Assembly (NCBI GenBank): GCA_918292005.1
Contig: CAKJZJ010000017.1
Span: 5,051-69,050, forward strand
DNA: 64,000 bases
Direction of reading: 5' to 3'
From: Clostridiales bacterium
GTDB lineage: Bacteria > Bacillota > Clostridia > Christensenellales > UBA1242
Below, piece after piece: positions 15,630 through 63,998 of the stretch (position 1 is the stretch's first letter; every line of letters begins with the position of its first letter). The notes under the pieces were generated by a model. That model had not been told where the DNA came from and did no database searches. It saw only the letters and a list, made by a program, of their open reading frames with translations. A program made the position numbers and the translations under genes.

Positions 15630-16844
15630 TTATGCATTGTCAGTTATTTGATATTGGAATGTTTTGGTCTTCTGTAGCATACGGTCACTTTTGGTAATGA
15701 GTAGTGTAGATACTATCTGCATACATGATGCAAAGGCTAAATATATGGATAGACTGATAATGTCATTGAGACAATTATATAGTATGAAACATACTATACA
15801 CGATAACATTAGTGATATAGCACTAAAGGTCACATATGCTACATTTTGTTCTATTTTGTATGGTTGTAATTCTGTGTGATTGACCAATACAAATAGACTG
15901 GAATTGATATCTGTATTGAGTAGTTTGGTGGTAATCGCTTGTACAAAATAGTAGATGAAGAATATTACAATCGAGCCGGACAATATCAGAGTTATTGACA
16001 CAATTATACGAGATATTGTACATATCCACATACCTATTGTCTTATGTTTGCCGAATTGGGTGTATAACATAAGTGTAATGCCTGCTATGAGTGCTGCTAG
16101 AGATGCATATATGCCGACTCTATAATTTGTACTAGTTCGCATAAATATTAGTACTGGTAGGAGTATTTCTACAGGACCATTTTTGGAGAATCTGCCTATA
16201 GCGTAACCGAAATATCCATACATGACAGGCTTGTGATGTTTGATGTAAGAAAAGTAATTTTTGATAGGAATGTGTACTATCTCATCATTAACTAGATTGG
16301 TATATAGAGATATTATGAAACATATTGCAGCAATACCAATCATTACGCCGAATAATACATAGTAAGATATAAAGTCGATTACATAACCAGAGATAAGTGG
16401 ACTCAGTACTGCGGCTACTAGTCCTAGAGCATTATTTACTCCTACAAATTTTTTCATTTGAGACTTGGTATTTTTGCTCATCACAGATATTTCGTGGGTA
16501 AAGTAATATGCTGTTTCCGATATTATATACATGGCCTGAATGATAAATATTAGATATACTCTGTCGCTATTCACTAGGAATATTAGCATTGTGGTAGGTA
16601 TGCACATAATAAAACTTAGTCGGTAAATAATATTGAGTAATTTTTTATTGATGATTTTGTATATTGCCAGATGCACGACTAGGTTTATTATTTGATTCAT
16701 AAATAAGTATGATAGAATGATGTTGAGATTTTTGGTTATTTGGTAGGCATATATATTGAAAAATATAGAAAAGAAAGAAAAATTTATTTGCATAAATAAA
16801 TTAATAATTACCAATTTTTTTTTATCTTTAGTATTAGTCTGCAT
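15630..16844 (-). CDS. MFS-type transporter
   Basis: About 12 hydrophobic segments; LSPLISGYVI motif. Confidence 0.75.
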   Translation of the reverse strand: MQTNTKDKKKLVIINLFMQINFSFFSIFFNIYAYQITKNLNIILSYLFMNQIINLVVHLAIYKIINKKLLNIIYRLSFIMCIPTTMLIFLVNSDRVYLIFIIQAMYIISETAYYFTHEISVMSKNTKSQMKKFVGVNNALGLVAAVLSPLISGYVIDFISYYVLFGVMIGIAAICFIISLYTNLVNDEIVHIPIKNYFSYIKHHKPVMYGYFGYAIGRFSKNGPVEILLPVLIFMRTSTNYRVGIYASLAALIAGITLMLYTQFGKHKTIGMWICTISRIIVSITLILSGSIVIFFIYYFVQAITTKLLNTDINSSLFVLVNHTELQPYKIEQNVAYVTFSAISLMLSCIVCFILYNCLNDIISLSIYLAFASCMQIVSTLLITKSDRMLQKTKTFQYQITDNA

Positions 16845-16994
16845 TTCTCTTTCCTTGTCACAATTAATTAATACAAAAGTATATTAGCATATTTGCGATT
16901 TATTTCATAATGAAATGCACAAAAAACAACAACCTACATAGGTTGCTTTTTAAAATTACATATAAGTCAAAAATGCTTATTGGTATTCATCGCT

Positions 16995-17675
16995 TTAAAT
17001 TTCTTTTTGATCTGTTTCAGAATTAAAAAATTGCTTATTTTGTTCGGTTTTATTATCAAGTTTGAGATATTGGCCAAATGCTCTTTCGTCGTAAGAATAT
17101 CCAATGAATATATCTTCGGGAATATCTGCATTATGATAAACCGCTAAAATCTGATTTGGTTGGATATCAAAAAACAATTCCTCTTCGATTATTGCAGATA
17201 TAGCACCGTCGATGATTACTGGTTTTTTAAAGCCTGGTAATTTGGTTCGTATAACTGCATGGCGGTCTATAATATTTTTATCTTCTGAGCGATCGTATAC
17301 AATAAAATCAAAGTCAGTTTTCTTTTCTCTTAATTGTTCTGCTACTGCTTTGCTAGCATAAAAACAAAATGATGGTTTGAAGTCTTCTTCTAGCCTGAAA
17401 TAGTCGTTTATCGAACAAAATCTACCTTTTACACCATCTATCAATTCTAGGGAATTTGGATTTCCTATTTTTAGTTTTTTGATTCGTTTATTAAATTTTA
17501 AATTTTTGTATGCGATAAGTGGAATGAATTGAGTTTTTAAATGATACATAGGGAATTTGTAATCTCTATTTAGATATGGTATTTCATATCCATTGTCATA
17601 TATTCTCTTGATATTCTTGTGCATAAATAAGTCTGCTATATCGTCATATATTGTAAAATTTTCTTTGTTTTTCAT
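16995..17675 (-). CDS. Hypothetical protein, possible transglutaminase/papain-like fold
   Basis: Cys (FCFYASKAV), His (RHAVI) and Asp (VIIDG) in catalytic-triad order. Promoter TTGACA 17710-17705, N17, TATCAT 17687-17682. Confidence 0.65.
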   Translation of the reverse strand: MKNKENFTIYDDIADLFMHKNIKRIYDNGYEIPYLNRDYKFPMYHLKTQFIPLIAYKNLKFNKRIKKLKIGNPNSLELIDGVKGRFCSINDYFRLEEDFKPSFCFYASKAVAEQLREKKTDFDFIVYDRSEDKNIIDRHAVIRTKLPGFKKPVIIDGAISAIIEEELFFDIQPNQILAVYHNADIPEDIFIGYSYDERAFGQYLKLDNKTEQNKQFFNSETDQKEI

Positions 17676-17722
17676 GCAGTTATGATAACATTTTGCATTC
17701 ATTTTGTCAATATGGGCTCTAA

Positions 17723-17864
17723 TGCGGATAACTGGATTTGTCTATATGAGTGGAACGAATATATCTCACGAGTAGGAGGGCTTGCACTCCGGTGACGAGT
17801 GAGTACGGTTCAAATGTAGATTGCTGTCGCAATCTCGTGTGTGGAACACACGCCAGTTATTGCA
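17723..17864. repeat. Branched palindromic element containing tRNA-Leu 3'-end copies
   Basis: 17723-17740 is identical to 17902-17919. Closing stem 17728-17735/17853-17860, with four internal hairpins. Confidence 0.75.
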
Positions 17865-17898
17865 CAAAAAAACAACCACAGGAGTGGTTGTCATTTTT

Positions 17899-17982
17899 TG
17901 GTGCGGATAACTGGATTTGAACCAGCACGGGTCTCCCCACAAACACCTCAAGCTTGCGCGTCTGCCGTTCCGCCATATCCGC
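17899..17982 (-). tRNA. tRNA-Leu(GAG)
   Basis: GCGGATATGGCGGAACGGCAGACGCG CAAGC TT GAG GT GTTTG...long variable arm...GGTTCAAATCC...CCGC A CCA. Terminator at 17866-17898. Confidence 0.95.
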
Positions 17983-18062
17983 ATATGATAGGCTTTTGCC
18001 TATCAATAATATACCACAATATTTGTGATTTTAAAAGACTTTGTAAACAAATTTTTGAAAAA

Positions 18063-19262
18063 CTATGATTTGATTTTATAATAAATCTTTTGTAATTCTT
18101 TTGCCGAGAATTCTTTTGGTACAGGGTACAAAGGATTGGCTTCTTTGGCAGCATGTTTAGCCATGAGTTCTATGTCTTCATCTCGGATAAAGTCAAATGT
18201 TTTTGGTATTCCAAATTCTTCATTAAGGTCGAGTATTTTATTTATAAATTTGTTGGTTGCATTTTGTTCGCTATCGTATGGTCTAGCCACATTACAATAT
18301 ACTGCCATTATTTTTAATTTTTTTATAGCAGATAGTCCATATTCGGATAATACATATGGTAATATTACAGCATTGGCTAGTCCGTGTGGGGTATTGTATC
18401 TACCACCCAGACTGTGTGCAATAGCATGTACATATCCTACATACGATTTTGTAAATGCGAGACCAGCCATGTATGATGCACGTAGCATGTTTGCTCTAGC
18501 TCTTTCATTGCTACCATCGTGATATACTTTTTCTATATTTTCTAATATTAGCCTAGCGGCTTCTAGGGCATTTTTTCTACTATCATCAGTAGTTGAATTA
18601 CCTATAAATGCTTCTATTGCATGAGTTAGTGCATCCATACCAGTCGTTGCTGTGATATTAGGGGGTAATTTGAGAGTGAGAGTGTGGTCTAATAATACCA
18701 ATTCTGGTATGAGTTTAAAGTCATTTATGGTGTACTTTCTATGTGTCTGGTCGTCGGTAATAACGGCTGTAACGGTGGTCTCACTACCAGTACCTGCAGT
18801 AGTTGGTATGGCGATGATTGTAGGTGGTGGATTTTTAATTTTCATAATTCCACGCATATTTAGGAGAGATTTTTTAGGATTTGCAACTCTAGCACCTACA
18901 GCTTTGGCAGTATCCATTACACTACCACCACCGAAAGCTATTATACATTCACACCCATTCTCTTGGTACAGGGCAACTACTTCTTCTACTAGTGAGACGG
19001 TTGGATTTGGTTTCACTTGATCGTATACGGTTAGTTTGATTTTTTCTGCCTTTAGGTCTCTCTCTAGTGGTAGAGTTAGTTTTTGTACACGAATGCCTTC
19101 GTCGGTAATGAGCATTACCTTGCTATAGCCTTTATCTAGCACAATATTTTTGATATCTTCCATTTTTTCTATACACTTTGGTTCGCGATATGGAAGCATA
19201 GGCATTATCCATTTGAAAATTGTTTGATATGTTCTGCAATACGCTTTACTAAAAAAATCCAT
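18063..19262 (-). CDS. Iron-containing alcohol dehydrogenase
   Basis: GGGSVMD, PTTAGTGSE, GMDALTHAIE, HAIAHSLG and HGLANA metal-binding motifs. Confidence 0.9.
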   Translation of the reverse strand: MDFFSKAYCRTYQTIFKWIMPMLPYREPKCIEKMEDIKNIVLDKGYSKVMLITDEGIRVQKLTLPLERDLKAEKIKLTVYDQVKPNPTVSLVEEVVALYQENGCECIIAFGGGSVMDTAKAVGARVANPKKSLLNMRGIMKIKNPPPTIIAIPTTAGTGSETTVTAVITDDQTHRKYTINDFKLIPELVLLDHTLTLKLPPNITATTGMDALTHAIEAFIGNSTTDDSRKNALEAARLILENIEKVYHDGSNERARANMLRASYMAGLAFTKSYVGYVHAIAHSLGGRYNTPHGLANAVILPYVLSEYGLSAIKKLKIMAVYCNVARPYDSEQNATNKFINKILDLNEEFGIPKTFDFIRDEDIELMAKHAAKEANPLYPVPKEFSAKELQKIYYKIKS

Positions 19263-19379: not shown

Positions 19380-21214
19380 ATGGGTTATCAATTTTGAAAT
19401 TTGCAAAAAAGACTAAAAGTAAATTTAGTCTTCTTTTATATTTACAAATTTCCAGTGATAACCACCAGAGCTTTGAGATTTACCTTTACAACATACAGAT
19501 ATAGCACTACGGCTCACATTTATGGTTTGTGCCGCTTCCTTAATGCTATTATAAATAATGCCTGTATCTAAATTAACGACTTTTTTATAATGTGAAGATA
19601 TAGTTATTTGTCTTGCACACTTTGGACAGTTGCGACCTCTTACTCTACAACTAGGACTGGTTTGCCATTCGTAGCCACATTTCTTACATTTCCACCAGTA
19701 TTTTTTATTTGTTTGTGGTCTGATTTGATATGGTTTAATATCGCCATTTTTTTCATAATGCCATTCTTTTACAATTTTAGGAAACAATGTTTCTAAATCA
19801 TTATCGCCAGATAATACTTTTTGTCCAGCACAATATGGACAACCACATTTCATACTGCCTGCTCTTGATGAAACAGTTGCTTGCCACTCGTGTCCTTTTT
19901 TGCACTTCCACCATACTTTTTTATCACTACCTAGTGTAACATATTCAGGATTAACTTTGTTCCTATCATAATCCCATTCGTTTATTAAAATGTGGTTAGC
20001 GATACTATTTTCTTTTGATATTGTTAAAGCTTTATTTAGTATTTTCATATAATCATTTTCAATGTTTGGGGTTGAATTAAGGTTTGTATTAAAAGCTTTA
20101 TTAATAAAATCAAATGTTTGTTTAATAATTTCTTTAAGTTGTAAAATAGGGTTTTTATAAATATTTACATATACGAGATATGAATTTGTTTCATATTCAG
20201 GACAACCAATCTCACGAATACGCACTAGTTTTAAATTATTTTTAGCACATAGTTGATCTTTTTTAAAATCACGTTCTATATTTTTATGCCATTGCCTACC
20301 ATCATATTCTATACCTAAATTTAATTCTGGTATAAATATATCAATTTCCATTGTGTTTAACCAATCAAAATGTTTACTCTCTTCGATTTTAAAATATTTT
20401 GACAAGTAATATGATAATGTTTTTTCTCGAATAGAAGTTTTTAATTCATTTTTACAATATGGACATTCAGTTTTTAAACCAGCTCTTGATCCAATTGTTG
20501 CCAACCATTCATGACCTTTTTTACATTTCCACCAAATCTTTTTAGTCATTCCATGGCTAACCTCTTGTGGGGTTAATACATTTTTTTCATAATTCCACTC
20601 TTTTAACAATTCAGGATGTGTCGTTGCTAAGTCATTTACTCCCACAATGATTTTTTGACCTGAACATATTGGACAAACAATTCTACCTTCCGTCATGTGG
20701 CAAACTTTCGCTTGAAAAACATGTCTTTTATCTTTATCACAAATCCACCAAACTTTTTTGTTGCAATGTGGAAAAATTTCACTTGGTTTTTCTTTATTCA
20801 AATCATAATTCCATTTTCTTGCTATTTTTGGAAATAATGTTTGTAAATCATTTTTACCACTCACTAAGATTTTATTTGCACATGCCGGACAACCTTGTCC
20901 TTTATTTCTATTATTACAGATGCTTAACCATTCATAATTACAAATGTGGCATTTCCACCATGCTTTTTTATTACTACCAAGAGTTGTTTTGTCTGGAAAA
21001 ATACCAAGAGAATTATTTTTCTCCCAGTTCCATTCTTTCATTAACTCTTTGTTGTTTATTATATAATCTTTGATCATATGTGTATTATAACATAAAAATA
21101 ATAAAAAGTCTCGAATTGACCAAATTTTTGTGTTAAGAGAGAATTAAAAAACACCCTAACTTTTTCAAGTTAAAGTGTTAATTATTTGGCTAGTTTCAAA
21201 AGTCAGCAACTATA
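19380..21214. mobile_element. Cassette A: non-autonomous element with conserved ends, inserted in the degV terminator loop
   Basis: Both ends are shared with 40242-42339. Flanked by AAAAGCAGG (19371-19379) and CCTGCTTTT (21216-21224). Boundaries are uncertain by about 3 bp. Confidence 0.75.
19425..21077 (-). CDS. Zinc-ribbon repeat (DUF4379-like) protein with Vsr/DUF559-like nuclease and NUMOD1-like C-terminus
   Basis: Five WWxC...CPxC modules, central EIDIFIPELNLGIEYDGRQWH, and C-terminal YNSIKEAAQTINVSRSAISVCCKGKSQSSGGYHWKF. Confidence 0.8.
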   Translation of the reverse strand: MIKDYIINNKELMKEWNWEKNNSLGIFPDKTTLGSNKKAWWKCHICNYEWLSICNNRNKGQGCPACANKILVSGKNDLQTLFPKIARKWNYDLNKEKPSEIFPHCNKKVWWICDKDKRHVFQAKVCHMTEGRIVCPICSGQKIIVGVNDLATTHPELLKEWNYEKNVLTPQEVSHGMTKKIWWKCKKGHEWLATIGSRAGLKTECPYCKNELKTSIREKTLSYYLSKYFKIEESKHFDWLNTMEIDIFIPELNLGIEYDGRQWHKNIERDFKKDQLCAKNNLKLVRIREIGCPEYETNSYLVYVNIYKNPILQLKEIIKQTFDFINKAFNTNLNSTPNIENDYMKILNKALTISKENSIANHILINEWDYDRNKVNPEYVTLGSDKKVWWKCKKGHEWQATVSSRAGSMKCGCPYCAGQKVLSGDNDLETLFPKIVKEWHYEKNGDIKPYQIRPQTNKKYWWKCKKCGYEWQTSPSCRVRGRNCPKCARQITISSHYKKVVNLDTGIIYNSIKEAAQTINVSRSAISVCCKGKSQSSGGYHWKFVNIKED

Positions 21215-62099: not shown

Positions 62100-63998
62100 T
62101 TAAAAGTCAAATGGATTATTGCCACCACCGAAGCCACCATTATTAGGAGCCTTTTTCAGTATCTTTTGATTACGTACACGTATATCGTAGAATAATGCTT
62201 GTTCATCCAATTGTTGTGGAAGCTTATTATTAGGTGGAGCTTTGGTCATGTCGTATACCGAGCATTTGTAACTAGGTGTGAATACCGACCTAATAGGGTT
62301 ACGCTGTAATATGGATACGATACATTCACCAGAGTTTGGCTTGAGTGATGCGAGCTCGGCAGGGTAGATAAGTGGTCGGGTATCCAGTTGCACGTTAACC
62401 GATTTGCTGGCTTCTGACTCGGCTTTTTCACCTTTGCTAATAGATGTAGTCTCGGTCTCTACAGATATATTACCACATCGTTTACTAAAGTCTTCTAGAG
62501 TGCCCTGGTCATTAGATGCTATGAATATGTGTATATTACAGTTATCTTTGACAGTAGCACTGACATCTTGTCCATATTTAATGGTTAATTGTGCATATGA
62601 TTGTAGGATCAATGTGAAGTATATTCTACGTGATCTAGCAACGGTAATAATAGTCTCAAAATTCTCTATTTTAGGCATATTACCAAATTCATCTAGTAGG
62701 AAGTATACGTCTCTAGGTAGGGCACCACCACGTTTATTGGCGATGTCTACTAGTATTTTATATAGCTGGGATACGAACATTGTAGCTATTGGGTGACGAG
62801 TAGTCTTTTCATCAGGAATTTTAATGAATACTGCTGTTGGTTGATCGGCAAATGTCTTTAGGTCCATCTCATTGGTAGATGTAGCGAAACATATACCCAT
62901 ATCACTGAAAAGTCCCATTCTGTCTGTAACAATACCCATGTAGGATTTCATTGTTTTGTCTGCATTGGTTATAACCTGATTGGCTAGTTGTACAGCCTGA
63001 CTCAGAGTATCACGACCGGCGAAGTAATCTATTAGGGATTTTAGTGGATTGCCTTGGTCGCCATCTTTCATATTTAGTATTTTAGCTAGGTTATAGAAAT
63101 TAAATCTATCCTTGGTCATGCCTAGGTCTGGATTTTCACTATCTTCTAGCATGGCAAGCATAGTACCCAGTACTAGATCTTTGGCACCACGTTCCCATAT
63201 AGGATCGTTATTAGATTGAATAGGGCAGAGTACAGATGCTATATCTTTTAGGTCTTCGAATGCTTCGGTTTTCAGTATTTGCTTTAGCGATGCCTGATGG
63301 TTTTGCAGAGATTGTAGGTCGGCAAATGCATAACCGTCGAATTCGTACCATTCGCCATAATATACCTGACTGACACATTTGAGTGAGAAGTCTCTAGGAT
63401 CATCATTGTGATGGACTTTGACTTCTTTATTTAGATTCATTGCTCTTTCATTTATTTCGTATGCTCTAGTCATTGGATTCCATCTAGCACTTTGGAATGG
63501 CTCTTTTAGGTCGAATACTAGCACACGATAGCCGTTTTTACGTAATTTTTCCGAGTGATTATCATATATTTCACCTTTTGGGTCGGTGATAACTAGGCAT
63601 GGCTTTGCGTGAGATTCGGATAGTATCTGCATGGTAGGGTCTACGAATTGTGTAGTTTTACCAGCACCGGTAGTACCTATGACTAGTGTATGGATTGGTT
63701 TGTACATATTTACATTTAGCTTGTTACCAATGAGCTCGGCTCTAATAGGTATGCCCACATTGTCCGAACGGTGTAGGTCTTCGTAGTAGTGGAATTTAAA
63801 GTCAGGATTCTTTTTCAATTCTTCTACCGATAGCCAATTGGTATCGTAGAATTTCTTTATACCATTTTTAGTTTCTACCTTAGCTCCAGAACTACCGAAT
63901 TTGAATTTACGATTACTGAACCATATAAGTACAGCCAGTAGGGTAATACCGGAGATAATTGTAAAGTAGGATTTAAATTTCTGATGCGTTAGTACTCC
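62100..63998 (-). CDS. virD4: VirD4/TraG-type type IV secretion coupling ATPase, 5' partial
   Basis: Walker A GTTGAGKTT, TDPKGE, WNPM and Walker B FLLDEFGN...RSRRI...ILQSYAQL...YG. The frame stays open to the window edge and includes a TM segment. Confidence 0.85.
   Translation of the reverse strand, partial: GVLTHQKFKSYFTIISGITLLAVLIWFSNRKFKFGSSGAKVETKNGIKKFYDTNWLSVEELKKNPDFKFHYYEDLHRSDNVGIPIRAELIGNKLNVNMYKPIHTLVIGTTGAGKTTQFVDPTMQILSESHAKPCLVITDPKGEIYDNHSEKLRKNGYRVLVFDLKEPFQSARWNPMTRAYEINERAMNLNKEVKVHHNDDPRDFSLKCVSQVYYGEWYEFDGYAFADLQSLQNHQASLKQILKTEAFEDLKDIASVLCPIQSNNDPIWERGAKDLVLGTMLAMLEDSENPDLGMTKDRFNFYNLAKILNMKDGDQGNPLKSLIDYFAGRDTLSQAVQLANQVITNADKTMKSYMGIVTDRMGLFSDMGICFATSTNEMDLKTFADQPTAVFIKIPDEKTTRHPIATMFVSQLYKILVDIANKRGGALPRDVYFLLDEFGNMPKIENFETIITVARSRRIYFTLILQSYAQLTIKYGQDVSATVKDNCNIHIFIASNDQGTLEDFSKRCGNISVETETTSISKGEKAESEASKSVNVQLDTRPLIYPAELASLKPNSGECIVSILQRNPIRSVFTPSYKCSVYDMTKAPPNNKLPQQLDEQALFYDIRVRNQKILKKAPNNGGFGGGNNPFDF

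Follow-up and report, generated by a model that had tools for sequence, protein, structure and literature searches.

Hairpin-rich, protein-less units matched to the neighbouring tRNA 3' end recur behind tRNA and tmRNA genes in a genus of gut Clostridia

The T-loop is the classic sublocation for elements that integrate into tRNA genes. Other mobile DNA relies on folded or single-stranded intermediates: the attP site of CTX phage and the attC sites of integrons imitate dif or pair with attI, using XerCD or IntI, and IS200/IS605 elements transpose as single strands and require a Y1 transposase. A further kind of sequence found behind a tRNA gene, the rtT repeat of E. coli, is co-transcribed with the tRNA and known as RNA. 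It consists of 178-bp units arranged in tandem behind the tRNA at tyrT/tyrV (RttR, RF00391; we read the sequence at MG1655 1286640-1287640). The units are expressed, and their mode of action is still called unknown (bioRxiv 10.1101/2024.07.17.603846). Here we describe small units found behind tRNA and tmRNA genes of a gut bacterium and its relatives, and set them against these systems.

We analysed a 64-kb stretch of DNA (hereafter the window) from an uncultured gut Clostridia bacterium with a genome of 1.2 Mb, 34% G+C and 96% completeness; the sequencing runs that hold the window are ruminant gut metagenomes. The sole tRNA gene of the window is tRNA-Leu(GAG) (ARAGORN; Rfam tRNA, 50.7 bits), and beyond the 3' end of this gene lies the structure set out in Table 1. 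A preliminary description of the locus had listed a branched palindrome made of tRNA-end repeats, hairpins and a terminator, and every one of these parts is present where it had been placed. The 5' arm, which forms the far edge of the insert, corresponds to C56-A73 of tRNA-Leu(GAG) in antisense reading and is a displaced direct copy. The T-loop copy GGTTCAAAT (17807-17815) is the exact inverse of 17915-17923, and the 3' arm CCAGTTATTGCA is imperfect in its acceptor part, with one base absent and one C>T change relative to the tRNA. Paired with each other, the two arms form a 12-bp helix that resembles the top half of a tRNA; one long imperfect palindrome runs from the 3' arm through the terminator into the end of the tRNA. 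The whole stretch folds at -62.5 kcal/mol (z = -4.1), a value equalled by 0 of 200 shuffles. There is no ORF inside the unit, which lies between a 235-aa ORF and an alcohol dehydrogenase gene. An Rfam 15 cmscan of 16500-19000 at E up to 10, RtT (RF00391) included, returned the tRNA only, and scans of three sister loci at E up to 1 returned only tRNA and tmRNA.

Table 1. Parts of the tRNA-Leu(GAG) locus (window coordinates) and sites of the element types in the same genome
Feature	Position or site	Strand	Description
tRNA-Leu(GAG) gene	17899-17982	-	CCA encoded; 3' part 17902-17919 is the proximal direct repeat
5' arm (a')	17723-17740	+	TGCGGATAACTGGATTTG; exact 18-nt repeat of 17902-17919
Type A core, conserved left end	17741-17764	+	TCTATATGAG..GAATATAT; kept in at least 10 copies in the same genome
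Hairpin P1	17743-17763	+	TATAT / ATATA; innermost pair covaries, T:A to C:G
Hairpin P2	17765-17803	+	CTCAC...GTGAG; inner GGAG-N8-CTCC hairpin, asymmetric internal loop
Conserved TAC linker and sense T-loop copy	17804-17815	+	T-loop copy GGTTCAAAT; first half of the inverted pseudo T-arm
Hairpin P3	17818-17835	+	AGATTGC-TGTC-GCAATCT; perfect 7-bp palindrome inside the pseudo T-loop
Hairpin P4	17836-17852	+	CGTGTGT-GGA-ACACACG; perfect 7-bp palindrome
3' arm (a)	17853-17864	+	CCAGTTAT-TGCA; sense copy of T-stem 3' strand and acceptor 3' strand; pairs with a'
Terminator (A-run, hairpin, T-run)	17866-17898	both	Predicted; inside the repeat unit, now serves the tRNA gene
Type A sites	3' of tRNA-Leu(TAA), Leu(CAG), Glu(CTC), Ser(GGA), Ser(CGA), Asn(GTT), Gln(CTG), Arg(ACG)		Two tandem copies at Leu(CAG); copy at Arg(ACG) behind a ~890-bp insert
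Type A variant	Glu(TTC), Ile(GAT)		
Type B sites	Ser(TGA), Thr(CGT), Gln(CTG), tmRNA		(T/C)ATTAAG..CTCGGG..CCCGAGTAC
Further core type	Tyr(GTA)		
Further core type	Gly(GCC)		

The 235-aa ORF (16995-17702, minus strand; no Pfam match) directly adjoins the displaced tRNA end and is preceded by a strong promoter of its own at 17710-17682, TTGACA-17-TGnTATCAT. On this side both the CCA and the native terminator of the tRNA are absent, so that the ORF may be a later insertion in its own right. No further displaced tRNA-Leu ends were found to the left of it, and the terminator at ~16920 simply belongs to this ORF. On the other side of the tRNA gene, the minus strand at 19425-21077 encodes a 550-aa protein with five DUF4379 treble-clef zinc-finger repeats and a NUMOD-like nuclease-associated domain.

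The preliminary description had argued that the structure was no simple att scar and might be a tRNA-targeting miniature element or a folded single-stranded recombination substrate, with analogues to be looked for downstream of other tRNA genes. This view is supported by a family of such elements, with tRNA-specific arms and shared internal hairpins, that we found 3' of other tRNA genes in the same genome, in related genomes and at tmRNA genes. The elements are ~125-180 nt long, protein-less and rich in hairpins, and contain sequence copied from the neighbouring tRNA. In this genome 26 tRNA or tmRNA genes stand last in their transcription unit, and we count an element behind at least 16 of them. 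At least four core types can be told apart (Table 1); on the strand opposite the tRNA, the type A core reads TCTATAYGA..GARTATATYTC, P2, GAGTAC, GTTCRANN, P3, P4. In all members the tRNA-end copy on the far side stops at ...TYG (C56), with the break between T55 and C56, and the tRNA proper continues with AACC at the junction. The direct repeat varies from 18 to ~57 nt between copies, and the left flanks of the copies are unrelated. Between element and tRNA lies a terminator with a T-run serving the tRNA strand; in two sister copies (C3 and C5) the T-run is found on the tRNA strand only.

Every element contains the T-arm region of the neighbouring tRNA as a sense copy, in the orientation opposite to that of the tRNA gene itself. 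In all copies the variable hairpins P3 and P4 interrupt the loop of this pseudo T-arm, behind position 60 in type A elements and behind position 55 or 57 in those of types B and C. P2 occurs in a short or a long form that folds in every copy, and its outer stem covaries. At the P3 position each copy has a hairpin of a different sequence, built from Watson-Crick pairs only, and the tip of P4 reads YGC-N3/4-GCR in most copies other than that at Leu(GAG). The copied parts follow the tRNA next door: variable positions 57, 59 and 60 of the T-loop copy agree with the neighbouring tRNA in every case, and gapless identity over arm and T-loop averages 11.9/14 with the cognate tRNA versus 6.9/14 with non-cognate tRNAs (permutation p < 1e-5). 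Within the 3' arm the T-stem part is usually exact, and the acceptor part nearly always has 1-3 changes. At tRNA-Arg(ACG), ~890 bp (G000 C5:62008-62900) separate the tRNA from an older type A element; this insert contains a 219-aa ORF (62203-62862), ends in a tRNA 3'-end fragment, GGTGCACCA, and resembles a small gene cassette that had used this tRNA as its insertion site.

The same arrangement is found at tRNA-Leu and tmRNA loci throughout the genus. Orthologous tRNA-Leu(GAG) genes in other species of the genus are 96-99% identical, and what lies downstream of them varies: in one species (G005) the site is empty, with a terminator only, two (G048 and G024) have type B tandem arrays, and a fourth (G041) has a third core, type C, together with an older copy. 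Among the sampled tRNA-Leu loci of the genus, the tRNA end recurs in direct orientation 125-180 nt downstream in thirteen. Of 20 species, 12 have a homologous element at the tmRNA locus and 8 have none. Tandem arrays combine core types, and their distal, older copies are more decayed; where the distal arm decays, the 3' arm does not compensate (C7 and C2). At the Tyr, tmRNA, Glu and Asn sites, where the outer flank is intact, the native terminator, CCA and tRNA end are found in duplicate outside the insert, which is the remnant expected if a unit with its own copy had inserted at T55|C56. Insertion of a DNA unit at this position is thus well supported.

Outside the genus the pattern was not encountered. 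None of ~85 tRNA genes from thirty other families of the same order had such a repeat, and in a search of 185,579 species genomes the strict type A pattern was restricted to this genus; exact core patterns gave a single chance match in these genomes, within a coding region, and 17 matches in IMG/VR viral contigs, all of them chance matches in coding DNA. We found no full-length relative with a protein gene in the genus loci examined or in IMG/VR viral contigs, and an identical-protein look-up with both neighbour genes, made for strain variants, returned no record. A 475-nt relative without a 3' arm is found at a tRNA-Leu(CAG) locus (L037, in G017) and contains seven copies of AATGATATT / AATATCATT; the AATGATATT repeats look like iterons or arm-type binding sites, and they are not clustered in the genome that holds the window. 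In another species (G004, L012/L014) a G+C-rich structured insert of ~190 nt lies between two type A copies at tRNA-Leu(CAA) and breaks the tRNA-end copy elsewhere, after TGCCGAAGG, so that more than one kind of small element is present at these sites.

Read depth in the source metagenome suggests that the assembly understates the locus. The unitig spanning 17723-17919 has a depth of 23.9, compared with 12-14 in its flanks, and a 42-nt unitig links terminator-TGG to the 5' arm and core at Leu(GAG). The same is seen at the Leu(TAA) locus (G000 C3:107771-107939) in unitigs of two runs, where the depth of the junction is close to that of the flanks. Since unit depth is about twice that of the flanks and a unit-to-unit junction is present, both loci are probably tandem dimers that the short-read assembler merged. 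Junction unitigs alone would be compatible with a circle as well as with a tandem dimer, and the twofold depth fits the dimer; no reads specific to an empty site or a circle were seen among the source-sample unitigs of the two loci. Elements of this kind collapse in short-read assemblies and may be taken for att scars or small RNAs.

Because the hypervariable hairpins defeated alignment of the full set of type A copies with MAFFT, they were analysed by script. Formal covariation was assessed in alignable tmRNA-linked orthologues from 12 species instead of with a type A covariance model. In this alignment 94% of cells pair, compared with 80% in shuffles and 28-53% with slid partners; 13 of 20 pairs have double changes, 37 double changes stand against 4 single ones, and 0 of 500 shuffles reach the observed score. 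The covariation of internal stems that the preliminary description had named as a check is therefore present. Helix 2, the equivalent of P2, covaries. In helix 1 the 3' arm tracks species-specific changes of the tmRNA T-stem, so the agreement between arm and target is actively maintained. Unpaired, single-stranded blocks are strongly conserved across the 12 species.

The type of base pair bears on whether these structures are selected as DNA or as RNA. Across P2-P4 of 14 type A copies we counted 305 Watson-Crick pairs and 2 G·U pairs, whereas G·U accounts for 11.3% of pairs in the folded tRNA and tmRNA stems of the same genome (Fisher p = 1e-11). Stems with near-zero G·U point to folded DNA rather than an RNA gene, because pairing on both strands, or as DNA, gives pure Watson-Crick stems and selection on an RNA usually does not. 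Hairpin-templated correction during replication can also keep palindromes perfect without selection. Of 21 copies, 16 have the more stable fold on the plus strand, whose mean advantage over the minus strand is 3.4 kcal/mol; GNRA-like loops occur in some P2 hairpins, and there is a tandem G·A motif. No sigma-70-like promoter was predicted on the element (plus) strand, and we found no RNA sequencing runs containing the element. Rumen metatranscriptome contigs cover the tmRNA, ending exactly at its 3' end, and leave the adjacent element uncovered, at a depth of only 2-6 that makes this a weak indication. The preliminary description had also offered an RNA complementary to the tRNA. This option is disfavoured by stems nearly devoid of G·U, by the missing plus-strand promoter and, weakly at this depth, by the lack of RNA contigs over the sister copy.

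As to an enzyme, neither a Y1/HUH transposase (PF01797) nor a reverse transcriptase (PF00078) had any match in the genome that holds the window (96% complete). Both were accordingly rejected as drivers, and with the latter a retron or other element dependent on reverse transcriptase. Within the genus, PF01797 occurs in 9 of 41 genomes, with no link to element occupancy, and PF00078 in 10 of 41. The genome has two tyrosine recombinases, neither of them beside an element: a Xer-like gene (C11 45105-46175), which adjoins lexA and is present in every genome of the genus, and a 464-aa tyrosine integrase (gene at C9 33971-35365) in a conventional island at tRNA-Thr(GGT) (G000 C9:33971-36855). Many genomes of the genus encode integrases of about this length. 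The integrase region of this island was tried as a model for the elements and rejected, as it has TTGACACCA arm repeats near the tRNA and is without hairpins. None of the copies has an integrase beside it, and none carries a protein gene.

We favour the reading that the feature at Leu(GAG) consists of one copy, or probably two tandem copies, of a non-autonomous, protein-less DNA element that inserts at T55|C56 and recombines as folded single-stranded DNA, and we rate it at slightly less than an even chance. The unit replaces all the displaced parts, C56-A73, CCA and terminator; because it supplies them the tRNA stays intact, and the old 3' end remains as the far direct repeat. In the mechanism that we propose, the element would recombine as a folded single strand, its inverted pseudo T-arm pairing with the antisense tRNA 3' end within the element itself and with that in the chromosome. 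Such pairing would yield a duplex that mimics the target up to the cleavage point, where an enzyme acting in trans would exchange strands at ...TYG|. By analogy with attC and CTX attP, exchange of a single strand followed by replication would give the observed product. Arrays might then grow beside the tRNA through repeated insertion or through recombination between repeats, and the universal T-loop sequence may explain why any tRNA or tmRNA can be targeted. In type B, the pseudo T-arm could pair to either side of the cut and place P3 and P4 directly at it, as one would expect if it acted as a guide or formed part of a folded attP mimicking its target.

What else might have produced these units has to be judged on the same evidence. 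If they were ordinary products of double-stranded site-specific recombination, that is, minimal attP-like units or tiny CIMEs that phages or integrative elements using the tRNA T-loop as attB had left behind, or mobilised in trans, through their tyrosine or serine integrases, the hairpins would be incidental or would be palindromes for protein binding. The tRNA 3'-end repeat does begin inside the T-loop, the element restores the tRNA and brings a terminator, tandem accretion is familiar from CIME and ICE systems, the 475-nt relative has AATGATATT repeats like arm-type sites or iterons, and integrases like the 464-aa one are found in many genomes of the genus. Yet one core serves Leu, Ser, Glu, Asn, Gln, Arg, Ile and tmRNA targets, and we know of no protein-read att core that serves many different targets. 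A double-stranded attP has no use for an inverted pseudo T-arm matched to the tRNA, hairpin sequences are free to vary while pairing is kept, the one real integrase island of the genome has TTGACACCA arm repeats and no such hairpins, and no integrase adjoins any copy; we therefore regard an origin of this kind as unlikely. Still less do we expect that no mobile unit is involved and that local replication errors at the tRNA-terminator palindrome (fold-back, quasi-palindrome correction, slippage) made the whole pattern. The continuous imperfect palindrome of 3' arm, terminator and tRNA end, the perfectly Watson-Crick stems and the commonness of tandem duplication would suit such errors, but cores of 60-80 nt are common to unrelated tRNA loci and to different species, the tRNA-Tyr arm does not continue the terminator palindrome, and 0 of the ~85 tRNAs in other families of the order have the repeat. 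The shared cores refute replication error as a full explanation, leaving it very improbable overall, although it may be a source of the perfection of the palindromes.

A structured non-coding RNA gene like rtT, mimicking or pairing with the acceptor/T-arm minihelix of the neighbouring tRNA, would give the elements a role in tRNA processing, as decoys for tRNA-targeting nucleases or in a stress response, and would make the repeats a by-product of gene duplication. The layout shared with the expressed rtT units of E. coli, the imitation of the tRNA top half by the 12-bp arm helix, the GNRA-like P2 loops and tandem G·A motif, the unpaired blocks conserved in 12 species, the better fold of the plus strand and the presence of an element at most terminal tRNA genes all accord with an RNA. 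Against this stand the near absence of G·U pairs, the lack of a predicted plus-strand promoter together with the unrelated left flanks, and a terminator that parts the element from the tRNA and acts on the tRNA strand only in several copies. Sites are also empty in some species, the distal arm decays, Rfam gives no match (rtT included), and metatranscriptome contigs cover the tmRNA and not the element next to it, weak evidence at their low depth. On balance an RNA gene seems to us rather improbable, yet a rival to be kept in view. A host function could nonetheless be the alternative meaning of the presence of elements at most terminal tRNA genes in a genome this reduced, or of their conserved single-stranded blocks.

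The reading as a folded DNA element can be taken further, with considerably more reserve. The occurrence of one core at many tRNAs, each copy with an inverted segment matched to its target, suggests that the target is read by base pairing. It is conceivable, if on the unlikely side, that the elements form a self-addressed, nucleic-acid-guided insertion system and that the E. coli rtT repeats belong to the same unnamed class. The pseudo T-arm would then be a split guide across T55|C56 of the antisense strand, with the hairpins forming a scaffold where the strand is cut. Strands would be exchanged on single-stranded DNA by an enzyme that serves housekeeping or is supplied transiently, and a rewritten guide would allow one core to address any tRNA. 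Target reading by base pairing would be of interest for programmable insertion, and the elements would offer a context for the long-unexplained rtT repeats. Should they prove to be mobile DNA, they would rank with the smallest site-specific elements known, able to occupy essential tRNA genes harmlessly because they bring along a terminator and the gene end that they displace.

These elements fit no mobile element or RNA family so far described, and a full-text literature search found no account of them. They were rejected as MITEs, since their inverted arms differ from copy to copy and equal the neighbouring tRNA, the repeat of 18 to ~57 nt is no short fixed duplication, and no parent element was found. 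With islands at tRNA and tmRNA genes and with CIMEs they share insertion in the T-loop, a restored tRNA, a displaced 3' end as a direct repeat, and tandem arrays. Unlike these, they are only 125-180 bp long and gene-less with no associated integrase, use one core for many tRNAs, and have an inverted, target-matched pseudo T-arm and covarying hairpins. Of the features that mark a CIME, the bracketing tRNA 3'-end repeats and the restored tRNA were found; an integrase or its remnant was not, and repeats resembling arm-type sites occur only in the 475-nt relative (L037).

A further comparison is with systems that work through folded single strands. IS200/IS605 elements and PATEs, like REP/RAYT, have end hairpins and insert 3' of a guide-read sequence with no true target duplication, features that the elements described here would share; IS200/IS605 guides are 4-5 nt long, compared with 9-18 nt in our elements, and the Y1 transposase that would mark such a system is absent from the genome studied. 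In the attP(+) of CTX phage and in integron attC, inverted imperfect segments fold into a target-like duplex, a likeness that our elements appear to share, and in both cases structure rather than sequence is conserved, here in the form of Watson-Crick covariation and an imperfect 3' arm. In contrast to CTX attP and attC, each of our elements imitates its own tRNA's 3' end. We would treat CTX attP, attC and the IS200/IS605 guides as functional analogies only.

The closest look-alike is the E. coli rtT repeat, and the likeness is one of layout only, with no sequence or covariance-model match. The rtT unit has at its end the final 19 nt of tRNA-Tyr, from the T-loop onwards, as a direct copy; it also contains an inverted T-stem/acceptor copy, GGGGAAGGAT, able to pair with this direct copy, and a T-loop copy, AAGGTTCGA. 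Between the T-loop copy and the 3' arm lie two perfect GCA-triloop hairpins, in the place that P3 and P4 occupy here. The two differ in that our elements have a terminator between tRNA and unit and rtT has none, and in that rtT is confined to one tRNA whereas the elements accompany many different ones.
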